Source: Jimgerdemannia flammicorona
Taxonomy: Eukaryota
DNA length: 40,787 nucleotides
Direction: 5' to 3'
NCBI GenBank assembly: GCA_003990765.1
Contig: RBNJ01000117.1
Location: 1-40,787, forward strand
Shown piece after piece: positions 4,017-40,787 of the stretch. The notes under the pieces are model-generated. The model saw only the letters and a list, made by a program, of their open reading frames with translations, made no database searches and was not told the origin of the DNA. Each line of letters opens with the position of its first letter. The first letter of the stretch is position 1. Made by a program: the position numbers and the translations under genes.

Positions 4017-6182
4017 GATATATAGTAGTCTTGATATACTGAATTTTGTATTTCTGATATATTATCTCATATAATCTATTAACAAATTCTGTGCTATAGT
4101 CTGTAGTGATTTGCCTTGGTATCTTATAGTGGCAGATGATTTCTCAATATAGGAAGTCAGTAATAGAGAGAGCATTAGCTTCTTATAATATCTCTGCTTC
4201 TATCTATTTGGTAAAGAGATCTATAATAACTATAATATAGTAGTTTCCTGATAAAGTTACTAGTAATAGTCTAATGATGTCCATTATGATGTAGTGGAAG
4301 GAGATAGGCTCAATTTTTGATGACCCAGATACCTGGTCTTGTTGATCTTATTTCTGTTTTTGGTACTTATCACATCCTTTAACAAATTGGTACAGATCTT
4401 CTTCTATCTTAGGCTACTATATAGTTCTTCCTGTCTTATCATATACATATATTTGTTCCTCTTAGGTATCCTTGTTCATATACTTTTTTCATTATTTGAT
4501 ACTTCTTATATTCAGATATGATGAGCTTTCCTCCTTTTCTGAGTGTGGTGTTGTTTAGTTCAAATTGTTTCCAAGTCTAGTTAATGATGGTAATAGTTCA
4601 GGGTTCAAGGTAGTTGAGTATCTCCCACTGCTCAAGATAGTTGATTAATCTATAATATAGCTTCTTATTCATATTGAATAGTCTTGATAGAAGTATTTTA
4701 GAGTATTTTTGAAAGTATATCAGTATTGGCATTAGTTTTTCTTGAGTAGTGTTTGATAGTACAGTCATACTCTTATAGTTTGTAGATCTATCTAGCATAT
4801 ATGTATTTCTTTGGGGTTCAGAGTGTGGAATATCCAGGTAAGAGCAGAATAGTCTGTTTGAATAGTGAAGTATTTTCTGACTAGATAGTAGTAGAACTTA
4901 TCTACTGCCCAGACTACTGCTAAGTATTCAAGCTTATATGAGTAGTTCTATTCTACTCTATGAGTACCTTGGCTTACATAAGAGATGATATATTCATATC
5001 TATCTTTCTTCTGAGCTAGTACTGCTCTAAGTCCTATAGTACTTATATTTATCTATAGGATGAACTCTAGATTCTAATCTGATCTTCTGAGAATGGGTGC
5101 TTGGGTCAATCTAGTCTTGAGTTTGTTGAAGGTTTCTTGACATTTATTGGTCTATTCAAATTTGATCTCCTTCAGTAACTCATAGATAAGTATTATAATA
5201 TTGAAGTATCCTTTGATGAATCTTCTATAGTAGGAGACCAATCCAAGGAAGACATAGACTTCTGTAGTTATTCTAAATCTTAGATAGACTACAACAGCCT
5301 CAATCTTCATAGAGTCTGTGTGAATTCCAGTCTGGTTGATGATGTGTTCTAGATAGGTAATTTTCTGAGCTATAAACTTATACTTCTTGGGCTTGATGTA
5401 GAGGCCATGCTCCTTGAGCTTCTTGAAGACTAGCTGTATGTGGTTGATATGTTTTAGTGTGATATTGCTGAAGATAATTATATAATCAACTTAGACAAAG
5501 AGTCATTTTCCAATTTCATTACTGAAGACTCTATTTATCATTCACTGAAAACTTACTGGGGTATTGTATATTCCAAATAGCATTCATAGATAGACATAGA
5601 TAGCATCAGATATAATAAAGGCTGATTTCTCACTGGTATCTTGAGTGAGACCAATCTGATGGAAGCCTGAGAATAGATCTAAGGTAGTGTAGTATTTGGC
5701 TTTAATTTCAAGGATAATAAGGATTTCTTGAATATTTGGCAAGAGCTGTCTATCCTTCTTAGTAATTGTATTGAGCTTTCTATAATCAATACAAAGTCTT
5801 AGGACAAACTCTCCAGACTTGCTTCCTTTCTTTAGAGCAAGGACAATGAGTGAAGCTCAGGGGCTGATAGCTTGCTTAATGATACTAGCTTCTTCCATTT
5901 CCTTAAATTCTACTTACAGCTATTCTTTATAGGCAGATGGTATGGTCTGGCTTTCTGGTAGATGGGCTTAGTATCACTGATGTCAACTTTATAGTAGTAC
6001 TTAGATTCTTGATTATGGATATCTCTGAAGTCTGTGACAAGTACTCCTTTATTTTAGTATAGAATCTTAAGAAGTTGTTCTTCTAGGAGAAAGTTTTCTC
6101 CAATGATATATGTGTGCTTGTTCTGGTTCTTGTCTTTCTTGTACTTGAGTTCAGTAATCTTAGTAGCAGTATAGGCTCCTCT

Positions 6183-6590
6183 TTCAGTAGATCCAAAGCC
6201 TTGTTCTTCTCTCTTAATCTTGATGAGTTCAATGGCTTCAGTGATCTTAGGCTTCTTAACTTCATAGATCCGTATCTGGCCAATCCTGTCATACTTCTTA
6301 ACTTCAAATAGGGTGATAGAGTTGTGATTCCTGACTATAAGAAAGATCTCACCAGTGTAATTAGGGTCAATAACTTCTCCTTTAACTGAGATTTCACTCT
6401 TAGCCAGACTACTCCTGATCTTGATAATTCTAGTATAGTTCTCTGGTAACTTGACTCCAATTCCAGTGCCAAGTAGAGTAGTCTGTGGTTTGAGGATAGC
6501 ATCTTAGATATTGATAAGATCTATTCCTACAGCTCCTTCAGTCTTGTATTCTGGGATCTTGGCTTTAGGGTGAAACTTCTTAACCTTGAG
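6183..6590 (-). pseudogene. dut: Trimeric dUTPase domain within pol, between protease and RT
   Basis: All five dUTPase motifs occur in order: LKVKKFHPKAKIPEYKTEGAVGIDL (I), RSSLA (II), GEVIDPNYTGEI (III), DRIGQ (IV), REEQGFGSTE (V). Confidence 0.93.
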
Positions 6591-13726: not shown

Positions 13727-16267
13727 CACTCATTGCTTTCAAGTCCTGCAAGCTGGCCCTAGCTGAATAAAAGCTAGCTACTCATGAGAAGGAACTACTA
13801 GCAATAATATATGCACTAAACTACTGGTGATGCTACCTAGAAGGTATTGAGTTTGATGTCATTACTGATCATCAATCCCTCAAGTATATCAATACCCAAC
13901 TTACTCTGCCATATCTATAAGCCAAGTAGAGCCTCAAGCTTCAAACCTTCAACCCAATGATCATCTACAAGTCTGGTAAGACACTTATAGTACCAGATAC
14001 CTTATCAAGATATCCAGACCTCACCACAATCATACAAGTCACCTTGGCATCAGAATTCCTAAACAAAATCAGACAAGCTTATAAAGAAGATACAGTTGTC
14101 ACTAGAGTTTTCTCAAACAAACTCAAGGATATATATACTGTTGAGAACAACCTAATCTGTCATGAAGATCAAGTCTATCTATCTGAAAACATGAACCTAT
14201 ACTACAAGGTTTTGCAAGAACACCATGACTCCCCTCTTGCTGGTTACCTGAAAATTGAGAAGACTGTCAAGAATATCCAACACTGCTACTATTGGCCAAA
14301 CATGGTCAAGGAAATCAAGAACTATATTGTCAGCTGTGATCTATATCAGTGTAATAATTCTACCAACCAAGTGCCTGCTGGTTTGCTACAACCACTACTA
14401 ATTCCTACCAAGAAGTTCAAGTAAGTCACTATGGACTTTGTAACTCAACTACCATGAACTCAATCTGGTACTGATGCTATTATTGTATTCATTAACCACC
14501 TGACTAAGACTATGGTTGCTGAACCAACCACTACTAATGCTATCACACCTGAGATTATAAGAATCTTCTTTAAGTCTATCTTCTATCACTATGGTCTACT
14601 ACAAGTAATTGTCAGTGATTGTGACCCCAAGTTCACCAGTCACTTCTGGCAAATCCTCTTCAAGACTCTGGAAACCCAATTGGCTATATCTACTGCCTTT
14701 CACTCACAAACTGATGGACAAACTGAGTACATGAACAGAACTCTAGAACAAATGCTTAGAAACTATGTTTCTTATGAGCAAGATAATTGGGACATCTACC
14801 TAACTTATGTGGAATTTGCATACAATAATGCTGTCCAATCATCTACTGGTCTTTTCCCTTTCTGGTTACTCTATGGTCAAGATCCTGAGACCTCTGCAAG
14901 TCTATTCCCTTTCAAGAAAACCAGTCAAATATAAGTTCCAACTGCCAAGAACCTTATAGACAAAATGGATGAATTACTCAAGATTGCTACCATGAATCTT
15001 TAGAAGGCTCAATAGCATCAAGCCAAGTATACTGACAAGAAACACTATGATGTCACTTACACTGTTAGAGATTAAGTCCTACTGTCTACCAAGAACCTCA
15101 AGATATAATCTCAAGTCAATCACTCTTCAAACAAGTTCCAACCCAAGTATATTAGACCTTTCAAGATCACTGAACAAGTCTCTGCATCCTCCTACCATCT
15201 CAAGCTACCTGAAACCATGAGAGTACACCCAGTCTTTCATATGTTATACCTCAAGACTTGGAACCAGTCACCACCCTACTCTGGTCAAATTCCTAAGCCT
15301 TCTGCCCCTATAATTATCAAAGACCATATTGAGTATGAAGCTGAGAAAATCCTTAACAAACAAATCTGCTACCACCATCCTGAATATCTAGTCAAGTGGA
15401 TGAGTTATCCTAAATATGATACTACCTGGGAACTACTGGTCAATCTCAAGAACTCTCAAGATCTAGTTTAAGACTTTGAGGCAAAACACATTGTCTAATC
15501 CCTATAGTGATTGTCAATGACCTATGGCAATGACCAATGTCTTATACATCAGAAGTTTACTTTGGGACTCCAGAACCAGCTGAACATTTAATGAACAAGA
15601 AGTCTACTGAAATGAAGCTACTAGCTGGGTTCGAACCCCTCCCAGTTGGTTACATAGTCTGGTAATAGGCCCTCTGCCCTATATAAGGATGGCCAATCCC
15701 TGCCAATGCACCAATTCAAGTTTGAGAAATTTTGGTTAAGTATATCTAGTCTTATATTACCTAAGAACTCAATGAGAATGTTGGTTCTTAAGGAGGGAGG
15801 GATATAACAATTTCACAGTCATATTTAGTCTTAGTATATTTTTGCATCTTTTAGTTAGTCTTTTCTTATTATTTCTTGAACATTCTACTATATTCTGTCA
15901 CCTTTTTACTTACTTAGAAACCTTCTCTTAGTACTCAGATACCACCAGAACATTTTTGTCTTTCCTTGGTACTAAGTATCTTGTTTTAGCTAGTTATGGA
16001 ACCTTTCAGAACATTGTAGAATAGTATTAGTCAGCTTTGCCAAGAACCTATTTCTTGGTATTTCTCTTTCTTTCTAAGATCCTTCTAGATATTTCTTTCA
16101 GATTATATATAAATATTCTTATTCTCTGCCTGAATAAAGCTCAGAATATTTTCTCCCAGAAATCCTTTGAGAATACTTAAACCTTTAAGTATCTCTTGGG
16201 GCTACTTTAGGCCAACCAGAACTTCCAGATTTAGCCACTTCCTCTTAAAGAAACTAGAACTGTTATA
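13727..16267 (+). mobile_element. 5'-truncated chromovirus (Ty3/Gypsy with chromodomain): RNase H tail, integrase, chromodomain, PPT, 3' LTR
   Basis: RNase H tail THEKELLAIIYALNYW..DVITDHQSLKY. Integrase zinc region HDSPLAGY..YYWPNM..CDLYQ and core IVSDCDPKFTSHFW..FHSQTDGQTEYMNRTLEQMLR. Chromodomain EYEAEKIL..EYLVKWMSYPKYDTTWE. PPT AAGGAGGGAGGGA ends at 15802, and the LTR runs ~15803-16267 with mutated TGTAAC/GTTACA ends. Confidence 0.92.
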
Positions 16268-22143: not shown

Positions 22144-23698
22144 CTACAACTCCCGCAACATCCGCTCCCTCCACTTGCGCACAGTTCTCGTGATCTCTCC
22201 GTAGTTGTCCGACCCGAGATTGTGGCCCTGCGCCTTGACGCACTGGAAGACTGTGTAGTAGAGATTGTCGGCGGGTTGAGTTCTGTTTTGAGGAAAGGGA
22301 GTGAGAAGGGAAGTTAATCGTTGGACAAGCGACTCTACGTTCTGTTAACGGGTGGATTGGGAGTGTTTGAATGGCTGAACTATAGGCCAAAATGCGATAC
22401 ACACGTGTATTTCCCGTCGGTGGTGATGAACAAATACTCGCCGACGACGAAATCGGGAGAGAGGTCAAAATACTGGGCAACTGTGATAGCGTGCGGGTGC
22501 AAGAATCAAAAGAACCTATATCAGCATTGTCTTTTTTCCATGACCCATTCCGATCGTCAGAAACCCGTCAATCAAATAGAATACAATAGAGAGATACCAA
22601 CAATCGCTGAGCTCGACGTCGAACCAGCGCGAGTGGTAGTGCATTTGGGCGGGATTGTCGGTGAAACCGACCGAGAAGCGGATACGCTTTGGAGCGTAGA
22701 TCGGATCCCTAAGGAGCGTAAAAATACATGTGAGAGGGAGAGGTGTGTGTAAATCCGAATGATCATCGATGGTATTATTCCCAATACTAATTGTGTAGTG
22801 CTTGACATACCCTAACTGCCAGATCGCCTGTGATAATTGGTTAGAAATAGAAGAGGGATCGAAGGGCGGAAACGCGCGGGTGAGCTTTCAAAAATCCCAT
22901 CTAATATTTGCCACAACCACCTAGAACCTCCGAACGACCTTCCACGTCGATATCTCTTACCCTGTACGGGATAATTTCAACCCCTCTCACGATGCACATG
23001 CCGGTCATTTTGTAGCAGAGCCACTCGCGCGAGTCCAGATTTCCAACCTCGCCTGACATACTCCCCGTGCTGCTCCAGAATTTTGTGGGCCGGTTTTCGA
23101 ATAGGGTTTGCTGAATGTCCTGGCAGTATACGTCGTCCGTTGTGCTCGCCGCTAGGCCAGAGTGGAGGAGGGTCGGGAAGGTTGTGGGTGTGTTCGGAAC
23201 GGCGGGGCGCGACGGCGGGACGACGCACTTGGTAAGCGAGACTGTGATGGATGGAGGGGTAGAGCGGTGTGGGTGAGTATGATGTGATGCGATGGGTACG
23301 GCGATCGTGCACAACTTGGAGGAAAAGAAATGTTTTTACTAACGATTTTGCTTGCAGAATGATTTGGGATGCCTACAACAGGAGACGAACTGTCCTCTCA
23401 ATCCCATCCTCTTCGAGCAAGCCACTGACGGGTCCGTCTCGGACCGGCGGCGGAGGAGTTCGTTAGAATAATGATTACTCAACGTCTCCAGCTCCTCCGC
23501 GCTGACGGGCACTCCGGGCGTGAACTTCAACATGTCGCCTTCCGGATCAAGGCAGAGGGCGCTCCAGACGTCGGGGGAGTAGGCAATCTGGTTCCAGAGC
23601 TTTGAGACGGCCGACGCGCGGGCAATACTTGAAAAATTTAGGAAGGAGAGGGTATGGAAGGAGATTTCCGTTGGCAGGGTAGCGAAAGGGTCTGGCAT
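22144..23698 (-). CDS. F-box protein, At4g00755-like family (F-box plus C-terminal beta-sandwich domain), multi-exon
   Basis: F-box DPFATLPTEISFHTLSFLNFSSIARASAVSKLWNQI. Spliced C-terminal domain ASTTDDVYCQDIQQTL..FWSSTGS..EWLCYKM..EIIPYR/AIWQLG/DPIYAPKRIRFSVG..GKYTTQPADNLYYTVFQCVKAQG. Stop TAG at 22144. Confidence 0.85.
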
Positions 23699-24322
23699 TT
23701 TGCCAAGTGAAACAGCAAAGAGAAACGCCGTTATCAAGTGACTGTTCAAAACGTGTGAAGGGTCTCGCATCATGTGAGATGAAAGAGTCACGACCAAGCG
23801 TTCGGCCGAAAAAAAAAACTACCTGCGATTTACATAATCATCGCCGAAACTGCCTCACACCCCTTGGCTACATATATGTGGGACGTCCATTGTTCTCCAG
23901 TCCTGGGATTGCTCTCGACATGTTTTGCCACAGATCTCCTCGCAAAAAAGTGTCAGACATGTTCGACAACAAAGAGCCGATCAATGCGGCAATCATCTGC
24001 AAGGGATACGGAACCTGAAAATACCGAGATAGCAAACCTGTACCAGCACGTTAGGATCGCCTAATTGCAATGAAGATATGGTTTTTAAGACCCTCTAGTG
24101 AGTCTATTTTTTTTTAAAAACGCCACACTTTCGTAATGCGTTCTTGAGACAGACTCGGGGACCTAGCTACATGTCTCACCTCCGCTATAACAATTGCAAA
24201 GTCAGGACAGCAACGCATAATTTCTTGGAGCTGCCCACTCTCTTCTTTACTCGCCTCCAATTTCTGTCATAGCAATTGCAACTTTAGGACACTAAAAGAA
24301 CAGCAACACATAACCCCCTGTA

Positions 24323-24893
24323 GCTGCTCACTCCCCTCCTCCTCTCCCTTCTCCTCTCCCCCCTTCTCTGGTCACCAATACCCGGAGTACGGTTACATCG
24401 CCGTCTTCATGCTCTTTTCAGCCGTCTGCGTCTTTTCAAACCTTGCTTTCCTCGGCCTCGGAAAACGGTTCTGCCCGGACCGTTGACTATACGGAAAGAA
24501 TCGCACGTGGACACTCGTATGTTGTGGGATGTTGATGGCCATATCGCTGTCCACATCTGTGTTCTATATCGTCATCACCGTGTCCACGAGTCCTACTTTG
24601 TTAGCTTCTGTGTGACATATTGTCTTGCTATGTTGGTGAAATTGCTGGAGCGAATTATGCGTTCTCGCCGCTTATGGAGGCAAGGCGTAGCTGTACTACG
24701 ACTATCGCGTTGGACGCGTTCACGGTCGGGTTCTGGTGAGTAGCGTGTCGGTTCCCTTTGCGTATTTGTTTTTCGCAATTTACGATGTGACAAAGCCATT
24801 CATAAAGTGCTATACTCCCTTTAGGTACCTTGCCATAAGCAACATCTGGGCGACCTTATACGCCGTCTTTTACATTGTAGTCCTCGCAAAAGG
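24323..24893 (+). pseudogene. Possible small multi-TM membrane protein gene or pseudogene
   Basis: Successive hydrophobic segments (YIAVFMLFSAVCVFSNLAFLGLG; LVCCGMLMAISLSTSVFYIVITV; YLAISNIWATLYAVFYIVVLA) with an in-frame TGA at 24484. No family recognised; exon limits uncertain. Confidence 0.3.
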
Positions 24894-25789
24894 TAGATCT
24901 TACTTCATGGACCTTAATCGCCACGCCACCGACTTTCTCTTCCGGTACACACACTCTCACCCTTCCTATACTGCCTCCCCCCTCCCTTATACTTCATCAC
25001 CCATCGTTCTTCTCCTTCTCACAGTGCGTTCTTTGGGCTCATATTCTCGACAACCCCGCCCCGGGCCGCCATCGCTCTCCTCCGCCGCCGGCTCTTCCGA
25101 CCCTGATTATTAATGGAGGCGCTGAAGGGCTGAGGGGGGGGGGGGGGCGATGTGAGAAATGTCGTTATGTCACCTAGAGTTGCGTTGGGGGTGATATGTG
25201 CTATGATTATTATGTGTATCCAGCCTGAGTTTATCTCGTCGGTTTATTATTTATTATTTTTGGGGAGTTTCTCCTCCATTATACATGAGTTGATTTACGA
25301 AATCTGGATTTGGCAAACGACAAGTACATAATTCAGGTCGAAGCGATTAAAAGTGACTTAGGCATATCATAACACCGATAAACAAATCCCTTTTTAATTG
25401 CGAATCCCCCAATTATGTTCAGTCCCAACATTTACTATTTAGTTACCAACGTACGTTTTACATGCTACCAATCCGCTACAGGGTTGTTCACGACGATGCT
25501 CATAGGACCGAACAGCACGAGGATGACTGAATTTCCTGCAAGGAATTCGATTTTCAAACATCACCTGTCTCAAACGGTTATGACTGGCAGTGTTTTTGAT
25601 GGCTTGAACCTCTACCCAACTCTCGCCAATCCAATTGATCATGGTTATATTGTTCAAATCAAAATCTCGGCCGGAGACCTTTTTTATTTCTACACACGCC
25701 CCAAAGATTCTCACTCGAACCCCCTAAATCCCAAAACACAACTCATTTCCTCATTCTCCCTTTCCTAAAGGGCTATCGCACCGCCCCAC

Positions 25790-27510
<1,721 letters not shown>

Positions 27511-29397
27511 GTTTCGTTTTGGGAGGGGGGTTGTGTGGGGTTAGAATGGACAGGGGAAGCAATGGCAATTTATATTTTCAGATGGGATAATCAGCCGTCA
27601 TTAAATTTTCCAAAATGGGGATGACGAGAATTCGACTCATCTGGTTCACACTCTTAATTAGGCAATTTTCATCATCCATCTCGCCTTTGCGACGACTCAT
27701 AATGATTCTTTAATCGAGAGTCTTACATGTACACCAACCCCAAGGTGATTACGTGCACTTCCCCACTGACAGAACCACATCACCCACCCATTTCACGTGC
27801 TCGTCAGAGGCACATGCAAGATCGACCTACGTTAATGCCCCTTTACTTTGGGGTGAACGGCCGCATCGGAGGAAGCGCATATGATCGCCCTTACCGACTG
27901 ACTCTGCGAATGCCGAGTCTCATTTTAAACTGCTCGCAGGTAATTGTTTTCTGGGGAAGGGGAAGTGGCTTTACACATTTGCACTAGGTGAGCTGGATGA
28001 GTTCGAGCCCATGCAAGTATTTTTAAGCTTGATAATCAGACTACATCATGTCAAATAATTGAGGTTGGCGTTTCTTCCCAGTAAGCAGAACGCTCATTCT
28101 CTCCATCGCCTTTTGCAACACCATACAAAGAGCATTTAGGTCCCGCCTTGGAGGTTTCCGCAGACGGCAGTGAGCGGGTGAAAATCCCACCGAAACTGAA
28201 AAGCCTTGAAAAGACTTGTGGTATGGTGAGGCGGAAGGCCGCGACTCTACCCTTGTCACGCACTGTCATCGTGGGAGGGAGGTTACATACATACATGAAG
28301 ACGGGGAAGGGGCCGGGGGTCAGTCAGACAGGGTTCGTTGCACGGTATCGGAGTATTTGGCAGTAGCTGGTGATACATGGGAAGATATCTATTGCTGGCT
28401 GGTGAAAAGATGGTCAGTGAGCAGAGTCGAAGGAGGCTTCGTGTTGGTGCGAGTGATGTGGTGGGGCGAGGGATGGGGTAGAGGTCACGGTGGGAGGGAA
28501 GATGGTTATTCCTGAGCTATACGAAGCTTGCCTACCAGAGAGTGAAAAAGAGGGACGGCGCTTCAAACGGTCATCAGTGCATTAAATTCTCTCTCTCACC
28601 ACTATTCGCTTCCATCAACGGAGGTGGTTCGTGAGTTGGCATCTCGTCTACCTAAACTCCAGGTTGGTGTAAATACTCGCCTGAAGATCCTCCGTAGTAT
28701 GAGCAAAATAAATATTCATCATGTCTGTCTTTGGAATAACGCGTATTGCAATCTTGCCCGCTTTCTCATTGAGCAGTAATTTCCTCGAAAATGACGTTCG
28801 CGATGCAAGAACAATATATTTCATCAAATGCGTCGACAGGCTCCTCTTTGATGCGCACATCCCTGTGACGAAAACTGTTATTGTCATTGGTCACAACGTC
28901 TTTAACCGATTCAGTGGGACAGTAAAAGTCACCGAAAACCTTAAGGCGATGTGATTTATTGGTTGGCTCCCAAGAATTAAAATGGTTAATATAATTATGT
29001 TGAATAAAGGGAATGGTTATAGCTACTCTTGAGAGCAATTTTTCCAGCCACCTAATTACCTAACGCGTTCAGGGGTAACCCAGGTGATCAAGAGGGATCT
29101 GCGAGGCGCAGCAGCCAACTATATCGACGTTCCTTGTGAGAGATCCCAATTATGCACGGAATGTCATTCGTGGCAATGCGGTATTAACGATTGACCCGAA
29201 ATAGAAGTCAATATGTGGATGATGAATGCAATCGTTTCCATGCCGAGGGATCCATTTGAGTGATGTCATCCAAATGATTTGATTGGATGGTGATCATGTC
29301 GCATCGCGTCCGTCAACCACAAACGGTATAAGTAGAGTCACAGTTGGACTTGCAAAGCGCACTTTAAACTTTTGGGATTTGAACTTCCGTCTCCATA

Positions 29398-32300
29398 ATG
29401 CTGCCAATCGATTTCCCAGTATCTTTAGAGATCTTCAAGACCCTTCGCTCGGATCAACCGCATGCCCTTGCCGACCTTCTCGCTCACTGCCTCAGCGGTA
29501 TTCAAACTAAAGATGGCAACCAGCTCTTGAACGACTTCTTCGACCAAGTTTTTTGTCTAGTGCAGTCTCAACCGCAGTGCTACCTCTTCCCCTTGATCGA
29601 GTTTCTCAAACACATACGAGACGTTTTCAAGAAACCTGAACGTGCCGACCCCCAGGTCACGATCCACTCATCCGCATTATTGTTGCCCCTTACGCAGTGC
29701 ATCTTGGGACGCATGCTTAAGAGCATAGCCACCATACCGCAAACCGTGTACCTTGTCGCAACCTTTGTTGACCTCCTGGTCGCCGCGAACAAATGTGACA
29801 GTGTTGGGAGATTATTTCTTCGCGAAATAGTTGATGTGCCTGGTGCGTTTGAGAGTCTGTTGACTGGTATGTGCAAGCCTGTCTGTCCCTTGAAACTTGG
29901 AAAATAGAATACACCAATTCCATTCGTCGATTTTTACAACCTCCTACCAACCCAGCCCACACCGGCCACCGATCGCTCCAGAAACTCTTCGTGCACGTCG
30001 AACTTCGTGTAGAACCCTTAGCCCTCAATCTCGTCGATCGCCTGCATGCCTTCGTCCGCGACTGTGCCACAAAGGCCAAAATTCCTGCCTACGTCGAAAC
30101 TTACATGAAGCAGTATGATGCTTGCGAAACATTGCTCGGAATTGTGCAGCTTCAGTCAGCCAAACTCCGCAGTTCATTGTCGTTGGGGTGCGCGCGTGCG
30201 GGCGATACGACCTCTGAGAGATCTCGTGCCGTCAAAATCATTGTGCCGAAGAAGGGACGTAACGATGACGACCACTTTTTTGGGAGTTCGAAGAATGGAA
30301 AGAAGGACGCGAAACAGCAACAGCAACCGCCACAGGAGGAAGTGGTGTGTATTTTTTTTTATATTCTATGACAGTTACACCAATGTGATTATCGAAATAC
30401 ATGTGAAGACAGTCTATCGCTGAATTCAGATATTTGAATAGATGATATTCAGTGCAACGCATTTGCGTTGCTTCAAGTCCATTGACGTTAAGCCGCCTTC
30501 TACGTTCGAGCAATTCAAAGTCACCTTCTCCTACGTTGAATTAGTGAAATTCGGTTTGCTGCAAGTGTGTTCAAATCCGTTTTCGGGCCTTATCTAATTA
30601 TGATGGGTTCTCTTCTTTCTCACGTCTTCTTACTACTTCAAGACCCCCGTCTAATCCTTACTTCTTCTCGACATTCATAAGCAATACTTGGACTCCAATA
30701 TCTTCCCCAATCCCGACTTCCACAAATTCGCCCTCAATGTCCTCTCCGACCAACACGCCGTTCAAGAAGTTGAGCAGGGGCCGATATCGAATTCGCAATC
30801 CGTGGGCTGGCCGCTGAGTCCTTCGCCCACCTCACCCTCGTTCTCCCTCTCGGACTCGTTGGGTCAGTTTGGGGATGATTTAGGAGAGTGGACGATTCTC
30901 CTCAGCGATAAAGCAGGTAAGTGCGGATGCAGCCTTCTCGCAAATTTTCATGGAACCCAATTGATGTCTAAAGGACTCATCGCTTCATTGTTTTGTTATT
31001 ATGACTATCAGTGACTGGCCTACATAATCTGCGATCACTCGACAGTTTCAGGGTCATCAAAAAGAAGCTTCAAGAACTTGCATCTGGAGTTTGGACGGAT
31101 GATAATGCAAAGCCTTTGATGGGTGGTCCCACCCATCACCAATCATTCGGTAGGTGTTGGGTGTCGGCTTTGTCTTTGCTCTTTTCCATATCCTCTTTGC
31201 ACTTGTTACTTTTATCGTCGCTTCTTCAAAATAAAGACAAACTTGGAATGCCAAAACTTCGTTTTTCTTCCTGGGTTCATTTTGAGTTTTTACTGGTCGT
31301 TTCGTGCTCGCACAATTGCGCCAACAGGAATCAAGGTGTATGAAGCCAAAACGTTCCGCAACCAACGCATTGTCTGGCAGGTCGATGTGGACTATGTTCA
31401 ACGTTTGAACGCAAATGCTCAAGTTATTAAAGTATATTACGTTGCTTCCTCCATTTTATTTTTTATTTTTTTTATTTTTATTTTTTTTATTTACCTGCTT
31501 TTTATGATGAAGAGGATGTGCTCTTATCCTAGTACATTTTAGCTGAGACCTCTTAGCTCAATATATCGCGTTTTGTTTATCCTCTTTCCTCCAACTTCAG
31601 GTTTGGGCCATCGGCAATCATAAAGACGTCAGCACTATAATGAACAAGTACCTCTGGATGGTCCAACTAGGCTATTCTGAGGAGCACAAGAAGCGGTGTC
31701 AAATGCGCAGTTCGTCCAGGAGGGGCTCGAACGGTTCGTTGCAGCAATTCTCTCCTCTGGTATTTGACAGAGATGTCAAGAAGTTTGACATAGAGGAGGC
31801 GGTGGAAAAACAGACATTAAACGACGATGATAAGGTGCAGCTCCATAACTTGAGAGTGACCACAAAGTTCTTCCACTTGTCAAAGGTCGGTGACGTCTTT
31901 TCGCCTTCCAATCAGCACGAATTTGAGCGTGTTCTCTCAATAGATGAAATTTATATCTTATCCATCATCCATGTAGACGGTGATAAAATCGATCCTTGCA
32001 GGTTCGACGGATTTCGTTTTTTCTGTGAGCTCACAAGAACATGAAATCATGGAGTATCCTTCCTCCGCCATCGTCATCGGCCGGTCTGGTAAGCAATGAT
32101 ATCAATAACTAATTCTCTAAATGCGCGACAGCACCGAAATGCGAGCAATTTATATGTTCACCTACACATGTGTGATTTGGCTGCATTCTCTCTTCCCAAA
32201 GGTACCGGCAAGACTACGACCATAATTTTCAGAATGCTGGGTCTCTATCAAGCCTACCATAGTAATACTGGCGAATATCTCTACAAATCCCCCACTCTCC

Positions 32301-35300
32301 CTGAGTCTAAGAGCACACATCTCCATCAGATCTTCCTCACGCAATCTGCAGTTCTTTGCACTCGCGTGCGGTCCAATTTTCGGCGCCTCCTTGAGTCCAC
32401 AGACCGCGCGAGCCTCCCCAAAGAGGAGATCCTGTTGGCCGCCAAGCGTCGCCTGATGACGGACCAGGACAGCACCGAGGACGTGATGATTGAGGATGAC
32501 GATGGCAAGGAACTGTTCGTCGACGTTCCGATAAACATGAATGACCTGCGTGACGAACACTTCCCACTGTTTTTGACAGTAACAAAGTTTCTAGAGATGC
32601 TTGAGGTAACTTACGGTATTCGACGCGCCACTGCTGAGCTGCCAACTAGGGTGCCTACTGCGAAACGACTCTCGCTCTGGAGTGGTGCGAACCTTGGACG
32701 ATTTCTGCAGAATCGTATGAAAGTTGAGGATAGCAATGAAGAAAGCGGGGAGTCTGATGCAGATGACGATGAGACAAACGAGGGCAACACCGCAAAGAAA
32801 GACGTGCAACAAATCTTTGATACCCAGCAAGCCTGGGCGCACTACGTCACCTATGAGATCTTTGAGAGTAAATATTGGCCTCGGATAAACAAAAATTATA
32901 CGAATCATTTGGATTGCGCGCTTGTGTTCACTGAAATCATGTCCATCATCAAGGGTTCGGAGGCTGTGCTATCTACCGAGAAGGTGAACTTTTCATCTAC
33001 ATCGGCTGTTCTTTCATCTCTTCAACTGATGATGAATATCGAAATAACTGCCGTTTATTTAATAATAGGGTTACCTGTCCCGTGAAATGTACATCAACTT
33101 GAGCCAAAAGGCGTTTCCAACACTTCATTATGCTCGTGAGACTGTTTACGCCATATTTCAACAATATAAGATGCTCAAAGCGAGGTAACTTGAAAGTAGT
33201 TTGATGTATATTTGAAATTTTGGTTGTATCAAATTTGGATATGCACAATTATATCATCTTTTATATGGCAAACAGGTTCAACGACTTCGACGCTCCGGAC
33301 AGGTGCGTTCCATGCTTTTAATTTACTTTGGAACATTCTCGTACCGTGGAATGTCCATCGCCTTATTGAGCTCACGGCTGCCTTCCTTTCGGGCATGCTC
33401 CATATTAGGAGTTTTGCGATTCTCCAAGCCATTAATAGAAGCGGCTATCACGGCGTGGATTTTCACCAGATCTATGTTGACGAATGCCAGGACAATAATG
33501 TTTGCGATTATGCTGTGATGATGAAGCTCATTTCTGACCCTAAAGGACTCTTCTTTGCCGGGGACACCGCCCAAGCTGTCGCTCGCGGCTCATTGTTTCG
33601 CTTTGCCGATCTGAGCTCTTTTGTGTATCGCCACGAACATCAGCATCCATTGGTGCTGACTGGCCATCGCAAGCCTGTCCAACCCCGACTGTTCCAGCTA
33701 ACTACCAATTTCCGCTCGCACGACGGCATATTGAAACTCGGGGCAAACATCGTTCAGTTGTTGCACCATTTCTTTCCCTCTACCGTTGATGTTCTGGACA
33801 AGGAGCACGGCATTGTGGATGTACGTGTAAACTTCAAAGGCTTTATCGTTTTTAATATCTCGAGACACGAAAGATGAATGAATTCTCAAAGCCATGTTCG
33901 CCTGATATGTAGGGTCCCAAGCCGATTTTTTTTAGTGACTTCACGGCTGACAGCTTCCTCGATCTCTTCTGCTTCGGCGAATCATCTGACCAGCCCATTG
34001 AATTTGGTTCTGAGCAATGTATGTTTTGTTCGATAGTGAAAGGTGTTGTTATTTCTGTCCCAAACACACTATTAAGGCTGTTCCATCGGAATCTGGCAGG
34101 TATCATCGTCAGGGATGAAGCCGCCAAAGAAAAACTTCAGCAGCGCGTTCGTGGCATGGCTTTGGTGATGACTGTTTATGAGGTGCGTGTGGAATCATCC
34201 TCGGTTGAAGGCAATTTCTTCGAATTTGTACACTCTTTATCAAACATTGGGTTTGCAAGTGGATATTTACTAGGAATTACTCTGTGTATAGGCCAAAGGA
34301 TTGGAATTTACCGATACCTTACTATACAATTTCTGGCACGACTCTCCTGCACACGAGAAGGTTGTTTGGCTGATATTCTTCTCGCTATTACTTTGAATCT
34401 GAATAACCTTTCTACACAAACGTTTTGACAGGACTCTATCTTTTGTAGTGGGACGTAGTTCTGTCGACAATCAAAGGGAGCAATAATCGATGGTACCCTC
34501 AATTCGACCATAGGAAACATGTAATCCTTTCTGACGAATTGAAGCAGCTGTACGTTGCCGTTACGAGAGCAAGGTCGCACCTCTGGATTTTCGATGGTAA
34601 TCTCCCACTCTGTTGCTGATGTCGATCGAATGTATCAGTTTTTTTTTTTTTTTTTGGCGAATTGTCATAGTATGCATTTTACGTATTAAACATCCTAAAC
34701 GTTTTGCAGAGAGCGGATCCAGCGAGCCCATGAAGGAGGTTTGGCTATCCAACGGACTCGTGAAGATCGTAAGCAAAGGAGACGAACTACCATCTCTGGG
34801 AACGAAATCGTCGAGCGACGAATGGGACAAGCAAGGCCGCAATCTGTTCGAGCGTAAACAGTACGAGCACGCCGTCTTTTGTTTCACCAAGAGTAACAAC
34901 CAGAAGGCCAGGGAGCTTTCCGAGGCGTACATGCTACGCGACAAAGCCCGTCGTCTAGTATCCCAGTCGGCCAGCCAGGGTGATGTCAAGGACGCGTTCG
35001 TCAAGGCGGCACTGGCATTTGGCAAAGCTCAGAGACCGTTGCATGCTGCTGAGTGCTACCAGGTTTGTGATATATTGTAATGAAATGCTTTCTTTTTCTA
35101 GGTGATAATTAATTGTCGCGCTCTATTTCTTGGGCGATTTGAACATCTCATCTAGGATGTTGAGATGTATTACGAGGCTGGCCAGTGTTTCGAGCGGGCA
35201 AAGAGGTTCCAACAAGCAGTACTGATTTTCAAAACAGGAGGTCATTTTGACGAGGCGGTCGATATTTTGAATAGGTGCATTTCCATTCATGGAGTATCGT

Positions 35301-38300
35301 ATTAAATCTTTTTTTCTTTTTCCCTCTTTTGTTTGCCAATTTTGAGATGACGGTTATTGTTTTAATTCTTTCAGGAAACCAAACGAGGTAGCCGTCGATA
35401 TTGCCAACAAAGTTCGCCGTATCGCACGAATTAATTACTCAAAGGACCAGCAGCACGATAAAGCCCTCGCATTAAGCAGCATGTCTTATGACGAATTGGT
35501 CAAATCTTACCGTGAGCATAACATGTTACAGCAACTGGCGGATCTATACGACAAAAAATTGAAAAATTACATCAAAGCTGGGGATGTCTTGCAATCGCTG
35601 GATCGGCTGCAGGATGCTGCTGTATTGTACGCCAAGGATGTGTCCCAACAAGGAATGGTGTCAGCGCTTGAATGCTATTTGACTTTAGCCAGCCGAAACT
35701 CGCGTCATCTCTTCGAGACGAGAAACAGGGACGTGAGACCCATCACCGAATTTTCCTCACTCTATGACCAACAAAATGATATTGTCGTGAAAGCGGAGCA
35801 TATTATCAATAGCTTGCTCTCCAATGAAAGTAATTTGAATTCAGCATTGAACTTGATGGTGCATGAGGTGAGCGATACCTTTTGCGTGTGACCTTCTAAT
35901 ATACAGTCATCGAGCTTTAATTCTGGCAATACACATCAGCATTCACAACTATGATCTACCTTTCATGTCTCAGGTCAAACTATTCCGTTCACAACTTGGC
36001 TTGTTGTCTCCATCCCATTCACAACTTGATAACTCGTTAGATCATTTACGTGACTGTGCAATCTTTTTCCATGGGAAGTCCATCATTAATGAATACCGAT
36101 CGCTCGAAGTATATATCGGATTTGCGCTAGAGACATACGACCACAACAAGATCTCGATGGACTACTGGAAATCCGAGCTGCACTTGCTTCAGGCTCTTTG
36201 TGATTGTGTCTTCACGCTCCTGAAGGCTACCCCTCAATCGAGCAAAGATGAAAACTGGGAGGAACTGTTCTGTGTCGACACTATAAACGTTGTTGCTTCT
36301 ACCGTGGATCGAAGAGTGCACGTGCAATCACCGCTAATTCCGATCATTCTTGGCAATGCCGACAGTCAAACTTCAAATCCACAGACCGAAGATCAGAACA
36401 AATTGTTACGACCATTTGAGAACGATCCGTCATTCCATCTATGCACTTACGAGCATGTTCAACTAGCAGCACGAAAGTTGCTCTGTAGGCGTCTGTGGAT
36501 GTTTCTTGAGGATAGTGGATATTTCGCAAGAAAGTTCAAATTCTTCAGAGATCCTTGTGTCAACCAATTGATACTTAACAACTGCCGGTCTCAAGAATGT
36601 AAACATGAACACATTCATCGCATGGATCCCGAGGTGTTCTACAAACGGAGGTCATTACTGCTTTTGCAGGTCAATCTGATGCATAATTTATCAGTGCTCC
36701 GGTATCCCCACGGAGTTTTCTTGCTTGAATATCACAGGCATAATTACAAACCTTTCCTCAAGTATTGGAAGATGGAGTGGGTGGACGCCAATATATTCCA
36801 CACCATGGAGATGGAGTCCGCAAGCGTTTTACGTAAGATTGCGAGAGATGTTCCTCCGCTTGTGGTGGACGAACTTTCCAACTTAGTCACAGTAATCTGG
36901 TTGAAGGATCCGAATCCGAAAGATCCCGATTCTTATCAGTATTGGAACAACTTTGCGCGTATCACGAGAGCTGTTCTCTTGATTCAGGCGGGTATGGTTC
37001 ACAAAACGTGGATAGGATGGATCAGAAAGAAGATTTACCGGCTTGAGAGTCAAGCAGCTAGGGTCTTTCGCGATATGCCGCCTGCCGGGATCGTTTCCAA
37101 AAATGGTCGGCGACGGTATTGGATGGTGAGAGATTTTATTTACTTTTTCGAAACCCTGAATCACGGGGATCTGGAAAAGGCTTTGAAGAATGGTGACGAA
37201 TTCATCAGGTAAATTTATTATTATCCCGGTGCAGTAATTTGCCTTCAGCTACGAGGTCTTTCGTGAATGATTAACTGTCTTTCTAATATCCTTCATCTTA
37301 GATTTTGCTTAAAAAATCCAAACGAGCTTGAACTGAACCCTTGGGACCTTATCTATACGCTCGAGTACACTATCACGTTACTCATCTTCATCAATTTGGG
37401 CGGCCACGGCGTCGTGCTGCCGCGTAGCTTTTTGCAATTTTTTGTGCAAGACCATATCCATTATCTCCTTCAAAGCTCACTCTTCGCTAAAGACAATATA
37501 CTGGAAAGGCTTTGGTCTAACGCGAGCGATACGGTGATACTATTCTTTAGTCTGCTTGCAAGTAACACATGTATGTTATGTTTGTTGTTCTTCATCGATA
37601 TTTGGGTATGGGTCACAGTTATCCAGACATTACCGTGGACTTATTTCTGCTTGGTTTCATGGTGGCACCGCATAGGCCGCTTTGGATTGAAGTATACGAT
37701 GCTCCAGGTCCTCCTTGCACGCGTGGTCCGGTTAGGTATTATTCTGAGCTCAAATGATACTAACCACCGACTTGACAGTAAAATCACAAGTTACTTCCGA
37801 ACGACCGAAATTGCTAGTATCAGTACGCGTCTTTTTTCCAGATACCTTGAGGCGAAGTCATGGTACGACATGGTGGGGGCCCTGCAAACTCAGTACAGGG
37901 AGACTAACGGGATGGATGAGCTTGTGCTGTTAAAGCGTGGCCAAGGACACATCAAATATATTGCCAAGGACATTACCGTGATGCAATACGAAGATGCCGA
38001 CGGATTCCGCGCGGCGCTCTGCGAATACCGTGATGTTGACCCCGTCCTGGCCGTAGGATCACCACCGGTCGATGATGATCAGCCGATCAATCCGCACCTC
38101 GTTAAGGACTCCGATCCCATCTTTCATGACAAAGCCATTCTCATCCAGCGTTGCTTCCGCAAGCACCGGATCCGCCGGGCGGAGATAGCGAGCGGGACGG
38201 CGTACGCCGACGCAGGGTTGCAGGAAGTGTTTACGCAGATGAAAGAACTAGCGAACAGGATGCCCGGGTCAACCGAGGGGAGACTATATGCCGTCATGCT

Positions 38301-38801
38301 TCGCGGGCGGGTAGCCGAGTTGTATCATGAAATATCCAAGTGTAAGGTGGAGGTGAATTTGATGCTCAACAAGGTGCAGTACAAGCTAAAGATGTCACAG
38401 TCGGACGAGGTGGAATGGTGGTTGGAACGGTCGGATGAGTGCAAGTGAGTTCTTTTTATTGTTTGGTTGGTTAATTTTGCCAAACAACTACCAATGAATG
38501 GTGCGCTAACAGAATACAAACGTAACCCGTCACCAGCGAGAAACGCGACCTCCTCCAACCTTTCCTTGACGCGCTTTCACCTGAGAATCCGCTTCACATG
38601 AACATGCAACCCGACCGCCTAAATCGCGATTACGACAAGGCTCGCGAGATACTCGATGTCGTAAAGGCTTGGGTCGAGGAGACTTCAGCACTGCAAGAGG
38701 GCGGAAAGAGGAGGGAATCGTTTACTGCGGAGGTGCCCAAAAAAAAGAACGAGGGCACAAAGAAAGAAAAAAGGCCAATGCTTAACAATTGGGATGTTTA
38801 A
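29398..38801 (+). CDS. Large TRANK1-like UvrD/SF1 helicase with RelE-like domain, TPRs, CCCH finger and IQ motif; many introns, >2000 aa
   Basis: Walker A GRSG/TGKT is split by intron 32089-32201. Other helicase motifs: IYVDECQD, AGDTAQAVARGSLFRF, LTTNFRSH, MTVYE/AKGLEF, ELKQLYVAVTRAR. TPR-like EWDKQGRNLFERKQYEHAVFCF follows. GT-AG junctions were phase-compatible where traced; last exon 38537-38801. Confidence 0.9.
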
Positions 38802-39565: not shown

Positions 39566-40787
39566 TCAGGCACCCATGCGTAGCCTCGACACTTCGTCAA
39601 GCAGGCGCTGTGCCGTGCCGGGACACTCGCGTTCGACATCCTCGAACGCACGCTTGAGGGAATCAAGCGCCATCTGGCCACCCCAGCTCTCACATTGGGA
39701 GTGCATCTGAAGATGTATACATCAAGGGATAATTCGTGGAACAGGTCATCAGTGACACAATTAAAGTGTGCATGGAATATCTATAATAATAAATCCCCCC
39801 CCTTCCCAAAAAAAAAAAAAAATTCCAGACAACGCTACACACCCGAGAGAGCACCGGCGTGATAGCGTTGGACAACAGGGCCTGACTCGACGCCACAAGC
39901 GAAACCTTATGTGACGATGGTGGATGCTGGCGTGGGGCGTAATCAGGCTTTTGTGGTCGCTGACGTCCACTGCTGTTGTTGCTGCCGCTGCTGCTGCTGC
40001 TGATGACGTTGAGATTGGTACTGCTATTGTTATTGACCTTGACGGTCTCATACCCTAATTCAGGCGCCTGTAGGTTCTCGACGCCGGCCTAAATCAAAAG
40101 AAAAGGAATATGAGCAATAGAGATGCGAATTAGACGGACACACGACGAAATCATGTGCATAGGGACCCTTACCGACACCTCCCCGGTCGTCGACATGTTG
40201 TTCGACAAGTTGTTCGAGGACGACCTCGGTTTGATGATGGCGGCCCGTACCGTCGCATCTGTCATCTCCGTGCCGTTCGATGACGACGCCGACGACGACT
40301 GCACGGGTTTTGGCGGCGGCAGTGGGGGCAACGGTTTCGCGGGCATGGATGCCGATCGCCCGTGCTGCTGCTGCGCTTGCCGAGGAGACGCGGGCTGCCG
40401 AACGGTGCCAAAGTCCCAGCCATCGCCGTAGATGGTCGGTGGTCTATAAGGAGACGAGAAGGTGTTGCGACGGGTCAATATCGAGCTAGCACTCCTCGAT
40501 ATCCACCGCGGGTAATGGACTGGCCCACATGATATATGTAATTTCAAAAAAAAAGGGACAGGGTCACGTACCCGCCTTCATCGTCCGAGGATTCGTCATC
40601 ATGCGCGCCGCCCTCCGCCAGCCAGCGTTCGTGTTTCTCAATCAGTTCGGTGAGGTAGGACACCTTTTTCGCGTTCTTGATGAATTTGTGCTTTAAAAGA
40701 TCCTTCGCCGAAGGTCGCTGAGCGGTTTAAGCAAAATGCACGTTCAACACAGAACAAGCGCTTCCGTGACATACAACATCCCAAAAA
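39566..40787 (-). CDS. 3' part of a Ste20-family GCK-III (MST3/STK24/STK25-like) kinase; the gene continues beyond the window
   Basis: Kinase end RPSAKDLLKHKFIKNAKKVSYLTELIE, then WDFGTVR, then C-terminal ALDSLKRAFEDVERECPGTAQRLL (GCK-III dimerisation-type domain). Stop TGA at 39566. Confidence 0.9.

Follow-up and report, generated by a model that had tools for sequence, protein, structure and literature searches.

Toxins of the RelE/ParE fold are, as far as we know, regarded as prokaryotic, and TRANK1 of vertebrates is a large protein that combines a UvrD-like helicase with TPR repeats. The available text of PMC11980606 describes cleavage by E. coli RelE of codons in the A site of eukaryotic ribosomes, that of a preprint (10.64898/2026.09.30.754977) describes a fusion of a RelE-like domain with a helicase, and in that of PMC6880163 TRANK1 stands in a gene table within the section on identifying interferon-stimulated genes. 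Here we analyse a 40,787-nucleotide stretch of the Jimgerdemannia flammicorona genome (contig RBNJ01000117.1 of assembly GCA_003990765.1; the whole stretch is called the window below), in which positions 29398-38801 hold one gene for a large UvrD-type helicase with a predicted RelE/ParE-fold domain ahead of the helicase core.

The gene and its family are already in the databases, where they are uncharacterised. What is new here, going by fold prediction, is that a RelE-fold module appears to be built into a TRANK1-like helicase, as a feature of the whole family and not of this locus alone. We found no publication that joins TRANK1 with RelE, UvrD or toxin-antitoxin systems, or with fungi, in a literature search that had most subscription journals and supplements outside its coverage. 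The available part of the HEPN paper PMC3710099 contains nothing on this helicase family, and the word 'helicase' is absent from the available part of Gerdes 2025 (PMC11980606).

Results

Positions 29398-38801 are one intact gene, as the first-pass annotation had proposed in reading them as a single protein of more than 2000 amino acids (aa). The 446-aa exon at 35872-37209 retrieved a 2411-aa protein (P0001) from a representative protein library, and residues 23-2383 of P0001 match the window in 17 collinear plus-strand pieces over 29395-38436 (tblastn). P0001 is a paralog, BC936DRAFT_145324, 58% identical to the window protein. For each gap between pieces, frame-keeping GT/GC..AG introns were enumerated and the junction peptide was scored against P0001. 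Every junction has a GT-AG solution with a peptide that matches P0001 across the splice, for example IGRSG/TGKTTT and LLSDKA/V/TGLHNL, and the resulting 22 introns (all GT-AG, 81-178 nt) join 23 exons into a product of 2366 aa without an internal stop. The start codon is ATG at 29398, preceded by an in-frame TGA at 29380-82, and the stop codon is TAA at 38799-38801; the assembled model begins and ends at the two positions first proposed, which are therefore exact.

An NCBI annotation made independently joins the same exons. Its product, P0004 (BC936DRAFT_144875, hypothetical protein of Jimgerdemannia flammicorona, 2417 aa), is identical to ours at 2394 of 2401 aligned residues (99.7%), so the window gene is BC936DRAFT_144875, and the two genomes are identical or very close; the seven substitutions suggest another strain, haplotype or assembly. 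The two models differ in the first intron, which is 41 nt in P0004 (29867-29907) and 89 nt here (29867-29955), giving P0004 16 additional aa, and at 37571-37675, which P0004 treats as coding. In our model this segment is an in-frame intron of 105 nt (GTATGT...TAG), and its removal excises 35 hydrophobic residues that are absent from P0001. The last intron, 38445-38536, has a GTGAGT donor, a CTAAC branch-like site and a CAG acceptor. The database model of P0001 stops near the position of this intron and its tail cannot be aligned; it probably reads into the last intron and misses the final exon.

The interval could instead be several adjacent genes, or a pseudogene decaying next to a transposon-rich, AT-rich block. 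No reading frame is open throughout, with many stops in each frame, two introns can be read in more than one way (the first, at 29867, as 41 or 89 nt, and the in-frame 105 nt at 37571), and a 22-kb stretch of AT-rich retrotransposon remnants neighbours the gene. Against that stand the frame-restoring junctions with peptides matching the paralog, the uninterrupted product, the collinearity with P0001 and the independent NCBI model, and we find this alternative hardly credible.

The RelE/ParE-fold assignment is well supported as a structure prediction. On an alignment of 26 copies of the domain (A1), AlphaFold2 (AF2) gave a predicted local distance difference test score (pLDDT) of 83.7 and a predicted template-modelling score of 0.80, with the order beta-alpha-alpha-beta-beta-beta-alpha (strand 10-13, helices 15-22 and 27-42, strands 68-71, 76-87 and 92-104, helix 105-123). 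When the model was compared with the Protein Data Bank (PDB) by Foldseek, the top 11 and nearly all of about 40 listed matches were RelE/YafQ/YoeB/ParE/HigB-type toxins, the RelE proteins among them coming from T. thermophilus, E. coli, P. horikoshii and M. tuberculosis, and the CARF-RelE effector Cami1 ranked 12th. The toxin matches have a probability of about 1.0, a template-modelling score on the target of 0.6-0.76 and a best E-value of 2.2e-3. The toxin-type fold noticed in the first pass is thus borne out as a predicted fold, with no Pfam match to go with it.

Sequence comparison points in the same direction at lower strength. Searched against PDB sequences, the A1 profile had four matches, which include S. 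aureus YoeB (E 0.094 and 0.29), and hhalign aligned A1 with E. coli RelE over 57 columns (probability 50%, E 1.6e-4), pairing the family segment 'YEAK..R[IL]V[WY]QV' with 'YKIK..RLVYQV' of RelE. The catalytic residues of E. coli RelE are K52, K54, R61, R81 and Y87; in this weak match a family lysine lies opposite K54 and a family arginine opposite R61. The nearest named clusters in the ESM Atlas, which serve as leads only, are all ParE, YhaV or RelE (0.81-0.83). The domain falls below every sequence-family threshold, so that by sequence it is assigned to no named toxin family, and Pfam and NCBIfam leave it unannotated.

For residues 10-140 of P0014, the closest ESM Atlas cluster (0.93) consists of uncharacterised eukaryotic fragments, mostly from Streptophyta, which as an Atlas lead hints that the RelE-like domain occurs in plants too.

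The domain is strongly conserved. Among 123 copies, four positions are kept as G in 122, W in 122, S in 112 and G in 121, and eight polar positions as E (109), K (95), R (100, with K in 16 more), Q (112), D (120), Q (115), K or R (114) and H (90). No other region is as similar between the two paralogs: identity is 71% here, compared with 68% for the helicase, 61% for the TPR region, 54% for the middle block and 48% for both the N-terminal extension and the C-terminal block. Three introns split the domain, which marks the gene as genuinely eukaryotic and speaks against a contaminant origin. A search with A1 of proteins of 63-226 aa gave 14 matches, none with a Pfam domain and none a stand-alone bacterial RelE; they include a partial protein of J. 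flammicorona, and the remainder are uninformatively named.

The window protein belongs to a large fungal family. Of 8000 candidates between 1326 and 4220 aa that were scored with residues 430-1260 of P0001, 644 matched at E<=1e-3; the counts of relatives given here and below refer to the 120 listed. An organism name is attached to 113, all of them fungi, and seven are unnamed. They include Endogonales, many Glomeromycota, the chytrid Dinochytrium and many Agaricomycetes; no Ascomycota occur among these 120 of the 644. Databases call them 'UvrD-like helicase ATP-binding domain-containing protein' or 'P-loop containing NTP hydrolase'; one, P0052, has the automatically assigned name 'TPR and ankyrin repeat-containing protein 1'.

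The core of RelE-like domain, helicase and TPR region is present in all 120. Counted by phmmer inside the fetched sequence set, the RelE-like domain occurs in 133 sequences (short fragments included), the helicase in 120 and the TPR region in 120, compared with 3 sequences, all Jimgerdemannia, for the N-terminal 400 aa and 9 and 8 for two C-terminal blocks. The C-terminal 850 aa are detectable in those 8-9 sequences and barely alignable beyond the genus. The 446-aa exon, searched against all representatives, found just 3 clusters, a sign of narrow distribution or fast evolution of the C-terminal region; the same exon had no usable match in the ESM Atlas, and a Pfam search of the N-terminal extension gave a sub-threshold match only. 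Both ends of the protein thus diverge fast, and the core, usually together with a CCCH finger and an IQ motif, defines a large and often multi-copy fungal family.

J. flammicorona, a mycorrhizal fungus, has two full paralogs and a third partial copy (P0131); 19 species occur two or three times among the listed relatives, and Diversispora epigaea carries two copies on one contig with adjacent locus tags. The first-pass annotation had set a strictly single-copy, slowly evolving housekeeping gene against a role as an effector. Set against this, the gene is not strictly single-copy, its N- and C-terminal ends diverge fast, and the RelE-like domain, best conserved between the paralogs, keeps a fixed set of polar residues. 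Two relatives, P0005 (3975 aa) and P0006 (4101 aa, Dinochytrium kinnereticum), are of double length with two RelE-like domains each, and P0005 also has two CCCH motifs; they reflect either a tandem duplication of the whole module within one protein or two genes fused by annotation.

By sequence comparison the nucleoside triphosphatase (NTPase) is a superfamily 1A (SF1A) helicase and not a STAND NTPase. The helicase motifs read from the DNA in the first pass are intact: motif Ia (FLTQS) is present in addition to those listed in Table 1, and motifs I, Ia, II, III, V and VI are all at least 90% conserved in two family alignments (A2 and A3). Pfam UvrD-helicase scores 25.4 bits on the window exon at 33200-33874 against a cut-off of 23; on P0001, UvrD-helicase scores 39.8 bits (cut-off 23) and UvrD_C 37.8 (cut-off 25.6). 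NCBIfam matches to PcrA, RecB, AddA, Rep and UvrD lie far under their equivalog cut-offs (PcrA 46.5 bits versus 911). The nearest solved chains to the family profile are AddA (1.7e-6) and PcrA (3e-3); phmmer of the whole protein against the PDB returned nothing at E<=1e-3, so there is no close relative with a solved structure. PADLOC reported GajB at 9.8e-13, which reflects generic GajB/UvrD similarity and is no evidence for a Gabija system.

The layout had also been likened, in the first-pass annotation, to that of fungal NLR-like proteins. Taken strictly, this would make the protein a STAND receptor of effector, NOD and repeats that oligomerises on ligand. The order of an effector-like domain, a P-loop NTPase and TPR repeats does resemble such a receptor, and STAND families give weak signals: nSTAND3 at E 0.086 and 13 bits on the fungal protein (cut-off 27.2), and nSTAND_NTPase5 at 19.8 bits (cut-off 34) on L004, one of the prokaryotic loci described below. 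The UvrD-helicase and UvrD_C matches above Pfam cut-offs, together with two RecA-like halves bearing motifs I-VI, establish an SF1A enzyme, and neither NACHT nor NB-ARC was matched in Pfam scans of the window exons and P0001. Membership in that receptor class is very improbable, and the resemblance is an analogy of layout.

The remaining parts of the architecture hold up too. An AF2 model of residues 1215-1800 of P0004 (40 sequences) has a pLDDT of 86.4 and shows stacked helix pairs over its residues 37-250, consistent with the TPR-like repeats suggested earlier. Foldseek gave 49 matches to this predicted solenoid at E<=1e-3, mainly TPR and other helical-repeat proteins, the top ones being SPY, Ctr9, IFT-A, Ski3, OGT, Gemin5, LGN and designed CTPR; Pfam TPR scores stay under the gathering thresholds (TPR_8 22.0 versus 25.7, TPR_6 21.6 versus 26.3). 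The predicted CCCH finger, tested with the spacing C-x7-9-C-x4-5-C-x3-H, lies at one conserved site in 78 of the listed relatives (1 of 120 when shuffled), and its C, C, C and H ligands are at least 90% conserved in A2; Pfam zf-CCCH gave no match at E<=0.1 on the window exons or P0001. For the C-terminal IQ-like motif, defined as [ILV]Q-xx-[FYW][RK]-x3-5-[RK], 26 of 39 rows have a match at the aligned site. The C-terminal tails of 65 of the 120 relatives contain it, compared with 2-3 when shuffled, and its strict form is found in 38 tails (1-4 when shuffled). The string 'A..IQ..[FY]R....RR' is part of the family consensus, P0001 has K in place of Q, and the window motif scores 15.5 bits with Pfam IQ, under the 20.3 cut-off. 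Ankyrin repeats, which the first reading had not seen, are indeed missing as far as Pfam can tell: no Ank family was matched in scans of the window exons and P0001 at E<=0.1.

When bacterial and archaeal genomes were searched with an alignment of 20 family sequences, 11 loci matched. At one of them (L003), in a Thermoanaerobaculia metagenome-assembled genome (MAG), two tandem open reading frames (ORFs) carry UvrD domains and TPR matches. In hhalign, the fungal profile A3 aligned with the first ORF over 778 columns (probability 99.95, E 1.8e-37), beginning within the RelE-like domain, and A1 aligned with the first 150 aa of the two ORFs at probabilities of 73% (E 3e-5) and 93.6% (E 2e-7), compared with 0.5% and 0.08% for the negative controls L004 and L002. 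Since hhalign links both ORFs to the family from the N-terminal domain onward, the core of RelE-like domain, helicase and TPR exists in bacteria.

A further locus, L002 (CBDIIG010000002.1, 2296-8691), is by title from a Sediminibacterium MAG and has 27% GC. It holds no ORF of at least 150 aa under translation table 11 and one 2132-aa frame under the ciliate code (TAA/TAG=Q), which encodes a helicase-TPR relative without a detectable N-terminal domain; the contig has the look of a eukaryotic contaminant in a bacterial bin.

Positions 1-22000 of the window form an AT-rich block (GC 0.25-0.41, compared with 0.42-0.56 to the right) with broken remnants of Ty3/gypsy-type retrotransposons on both strands (Table 1), about 7 kb from the helicase gene. 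ORFs at 24691-26681 and 39693-40577 have no Pfam match.

Table 1 Coordinates of the helicase gene, its predicted parts and other features; positions refer to the window unless another contig is named.
Feature	Position	Strand	Residues	Basis or remark
Whole gene	29398..38801	+	~2366 aa	23 exons, 22 GT-AG introns
Exons 1-8	29398-29866, 29956-30344, 30442-30564, 30682-30916, 31012-31149, 31328-31431, 31601-31885, 31977-32088	+
Exons 9-16	32202-32983, 33069-33184, 33276-33302, 33409-33820, 33913-34018, 34100-34182, 34292-34360, 34449-34596	+
Exons 17-23	34710-35062, 35156-35274, 35375-35867, 35974-37208, 37302-37570, 37676-38444, 38537-38801	+
N-terminal extension	29398..30864	+	1-388	lineage-specific, no known family
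RelE/ParE-fold domain (predicted)	30865..31678	+	389-512	split by introns 30917-31011, 31150-31327, 31432-31600
SF1A (UvrD-type) helicase core	32052..34595	+	607-1199	Pfam UvrD-helicase, UvrD_C
Walker A, GRSGTGKT	32079-32215	+		intron-split
Motif II, VDECQD	33476-33493	+
Motif III, GDTAQ	33560-33574	+
Motif V, YEAKGLEF	34177-34309	+		intron-split
Motif VI, VAVTRAR	34554-34574	+
TPR-like alpha-solenoid (predicted)	34811..35976	+	1234-1522	fold model, Foldseek, weak Pfam
CCCH motif, C-x8-C-x4-C-x3-H	36556..36612	+	1716-1734	conserved spacing
IQ-like motif	38137..38178	+	2177-2190	conserved pattern, sub-threshold Pfam
Last exon, basic C-terminal tail	38537..38801	+		read from sequence; also in NCBI model P0004
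Reverse transcriptase remnant	5155-5490	-
dUTPase ORF	6057-6503	-
Integrase zinc domain	13930-14421	+
SH3/chromodomain	15109-15468	+
F-box ORF	23342-23818	-		F-box-like, 7.8e-12; probably exon of neighbouring gene
L003, two tandem ORFs	DATMER010000137.1: 2083-6570, 6610-11019		1496 and 1470 aa	Thermoanaerobaculia MAG

Discussion

A RelE-fold domain, as predicted here, is interrupted by three spliceosomal introns and is a constant component of a large family of fungal helicases for which no function has been described. The layout shared by this family and a few bacteria hints at a role in RNA-directed defence or surveillance. We favour, at about even confidence, the reading that the protein is an ATP-driven enzyme of nucleic-acid surveillance or conflict, with RNA or translating ribosomes as its most likely target. 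Its RelE-fold module, in which E, K, R, Q, D, Q, K/R and H are kept without change or nearly so and are predicted to lie on the strand face, would engage RNA or the ribosome and perhaps cleave RNA, and the helicase would translocate or license. Binding of partners or cues may fall to the TPR region and the variable C-terminal region, the CCCH finger may bind RNA, and the IQ motif may bind calmodulin or a similar light chain.

Several observations weigh against such a role. The RelE-like domain stays anonymous at the sequence level: Pfam found 0 families at E<=10 on the copy in P0001, phmmer against the PDB returned just a flagellin (E 0.74), Foldseek gave no PDB match at E<=1e-3, and plain hmmsearch of A1 on the ORFs of the 11 prokaryotic loci, L003 included, gave no match. 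In the hhalign comparison with RelE, a family glutamate stands at K52, and the C-terminal part of RelE that holds R81 and Y87 lies outside the 57 aligned columns; many Glomeromycota copies are without the conserved K and H. ParE-type members of the fold are non-nucleases, and the domain could be a binding module. The nearest solved helicases, AddA and PcrA, are DNA enzymes and the family is UvrD-type. The ciliate-code relative and a Kryptonium relative have no N-terminal domain, and the Thermoanaerobaculia pair, the one locus examined in this respect, sits directly downstream of selB and not among obvious defence genes. Purifying selection on the core across fungi fits a housekeeping role as well.

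A rival account is a housekeeping or genome-maintenance DNA helicase without a conflict or immune role. The RelE/ParE-fold domain would then serve, as in ParE-type members, as a scaffold without catalytic activity or as a module that binds protein or DNA, and the TPR, CCCH and IQ elements would be ordinary regulatory or partner-binding parts. In favour of this account, the helicase has its solved neighbours and NCBIfam matches among UvrD-type enzymes, the core is kept from Mucoromycota and Glomeromycota to a chytrid and Agaricomycetes, the RelE catalytic positions are matched only partly, no Pfam toxin family is matched and the bacterial homologs adjoin selB. A dead scaffold is hard to square with the N-terminal domain being the most conserved region between the paralogs, and its eight polar positions are kept in 90-120 of 123 copies. 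Multiple copies in 19 species, fast-evolving N and C ends and a widespread CCCH finger, typically an RNA-binding element, also argue against it. We regard this account as possible and, on the evidence together, somewhat unlikely.

The surveillance or conflict enzyme that we favour could also be put in a stronger form, which we consider speculative and improbable as a whole. The RelE-fold module would then be an active RNA endonuclease, dependent on the ribosome or coupled to the helicase. The core would be a conflict effector of ancient bacterial origin, passed on by inheritance or acquisition from genes of the Thermoanaerobaculia type. Its expansion in fungi would have produced a multi-copy system against viruses or transposons, with C-terminal sensors that vary and with control by calcium and calmodulin. 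If the domain is active, it would be a eukaryotic toxin-type RNase within an ATP-driven machine, parallel to the bacterial multidomain RelE defence effectors. If vertebrate TRANK1 has the module, it would give the first mechanistic handle on a protein of undefined function that appears in a table of interferon-stimulated genes.

The closest counterparts of the window protein are the fungal 'UvrD-like helicase ATP-binding domain-containing' or TRANK1-like proteins, among them the J. flammicorona paralog BC936DRAFT_145324 and relatives in Rhizophagus, Gigaspora, Suillus and Hypsizygus. It is a member of this family and shares its core; its N-terminal 400 aa are confined to Jimgerdemannia. No member has a described function, and Pfam marks the helicase only. 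The likeness to vertebrate TRANK1 comes through the automatic name of one fungal relative (P0052), and TRANK1, named TPR and ankyrin repeat-containing protein 1, differs from the window protein, which is without ankyrin repeats.

Among bacterial proteins, the Thermoanaerobaculia genes have the same order of N-terminal RelE-like domain, UvrD-type helicase and TPR. They are shorter (about 1470-1496 aa), about 25% identical and unannotated; they have no Pfam zf-CCCH or IQ match, the CCCH and IQ patterns not having been looked for directly. UvrD, PcrA, AddA and Gabija GajB share the helicase superfamily and its motifs, whereas the window family has long insertions in domain 1 and adds N- and C-terminal modules that are absent from those enzymes. 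In the Tiamat-linked fusion of a RelE-like domain with a helicase, the two parts are likewise joined, and no Tiamat neighbour is seen beside the window gene. Cami1 has a RelE-fold module joined to a regulatory domain, as the window protein is predicted to have, and its CARF domain is absent here. The mRNA interferases RelE, YoeB, YafQ and HigB and the ParE toxins have the same predicted topology and are the top structural matches of the modelled domain, and 'R-L-V-Y-Q-V' of RelE aligns with the family segment 'R-[LI]-V-[YW]-Q-V-D'. RelE-type toxins are proteins of about 90 aa that come with an antitoxin, whereas the domain predicted here sits within a eukaryotic protein of 2366 aa.

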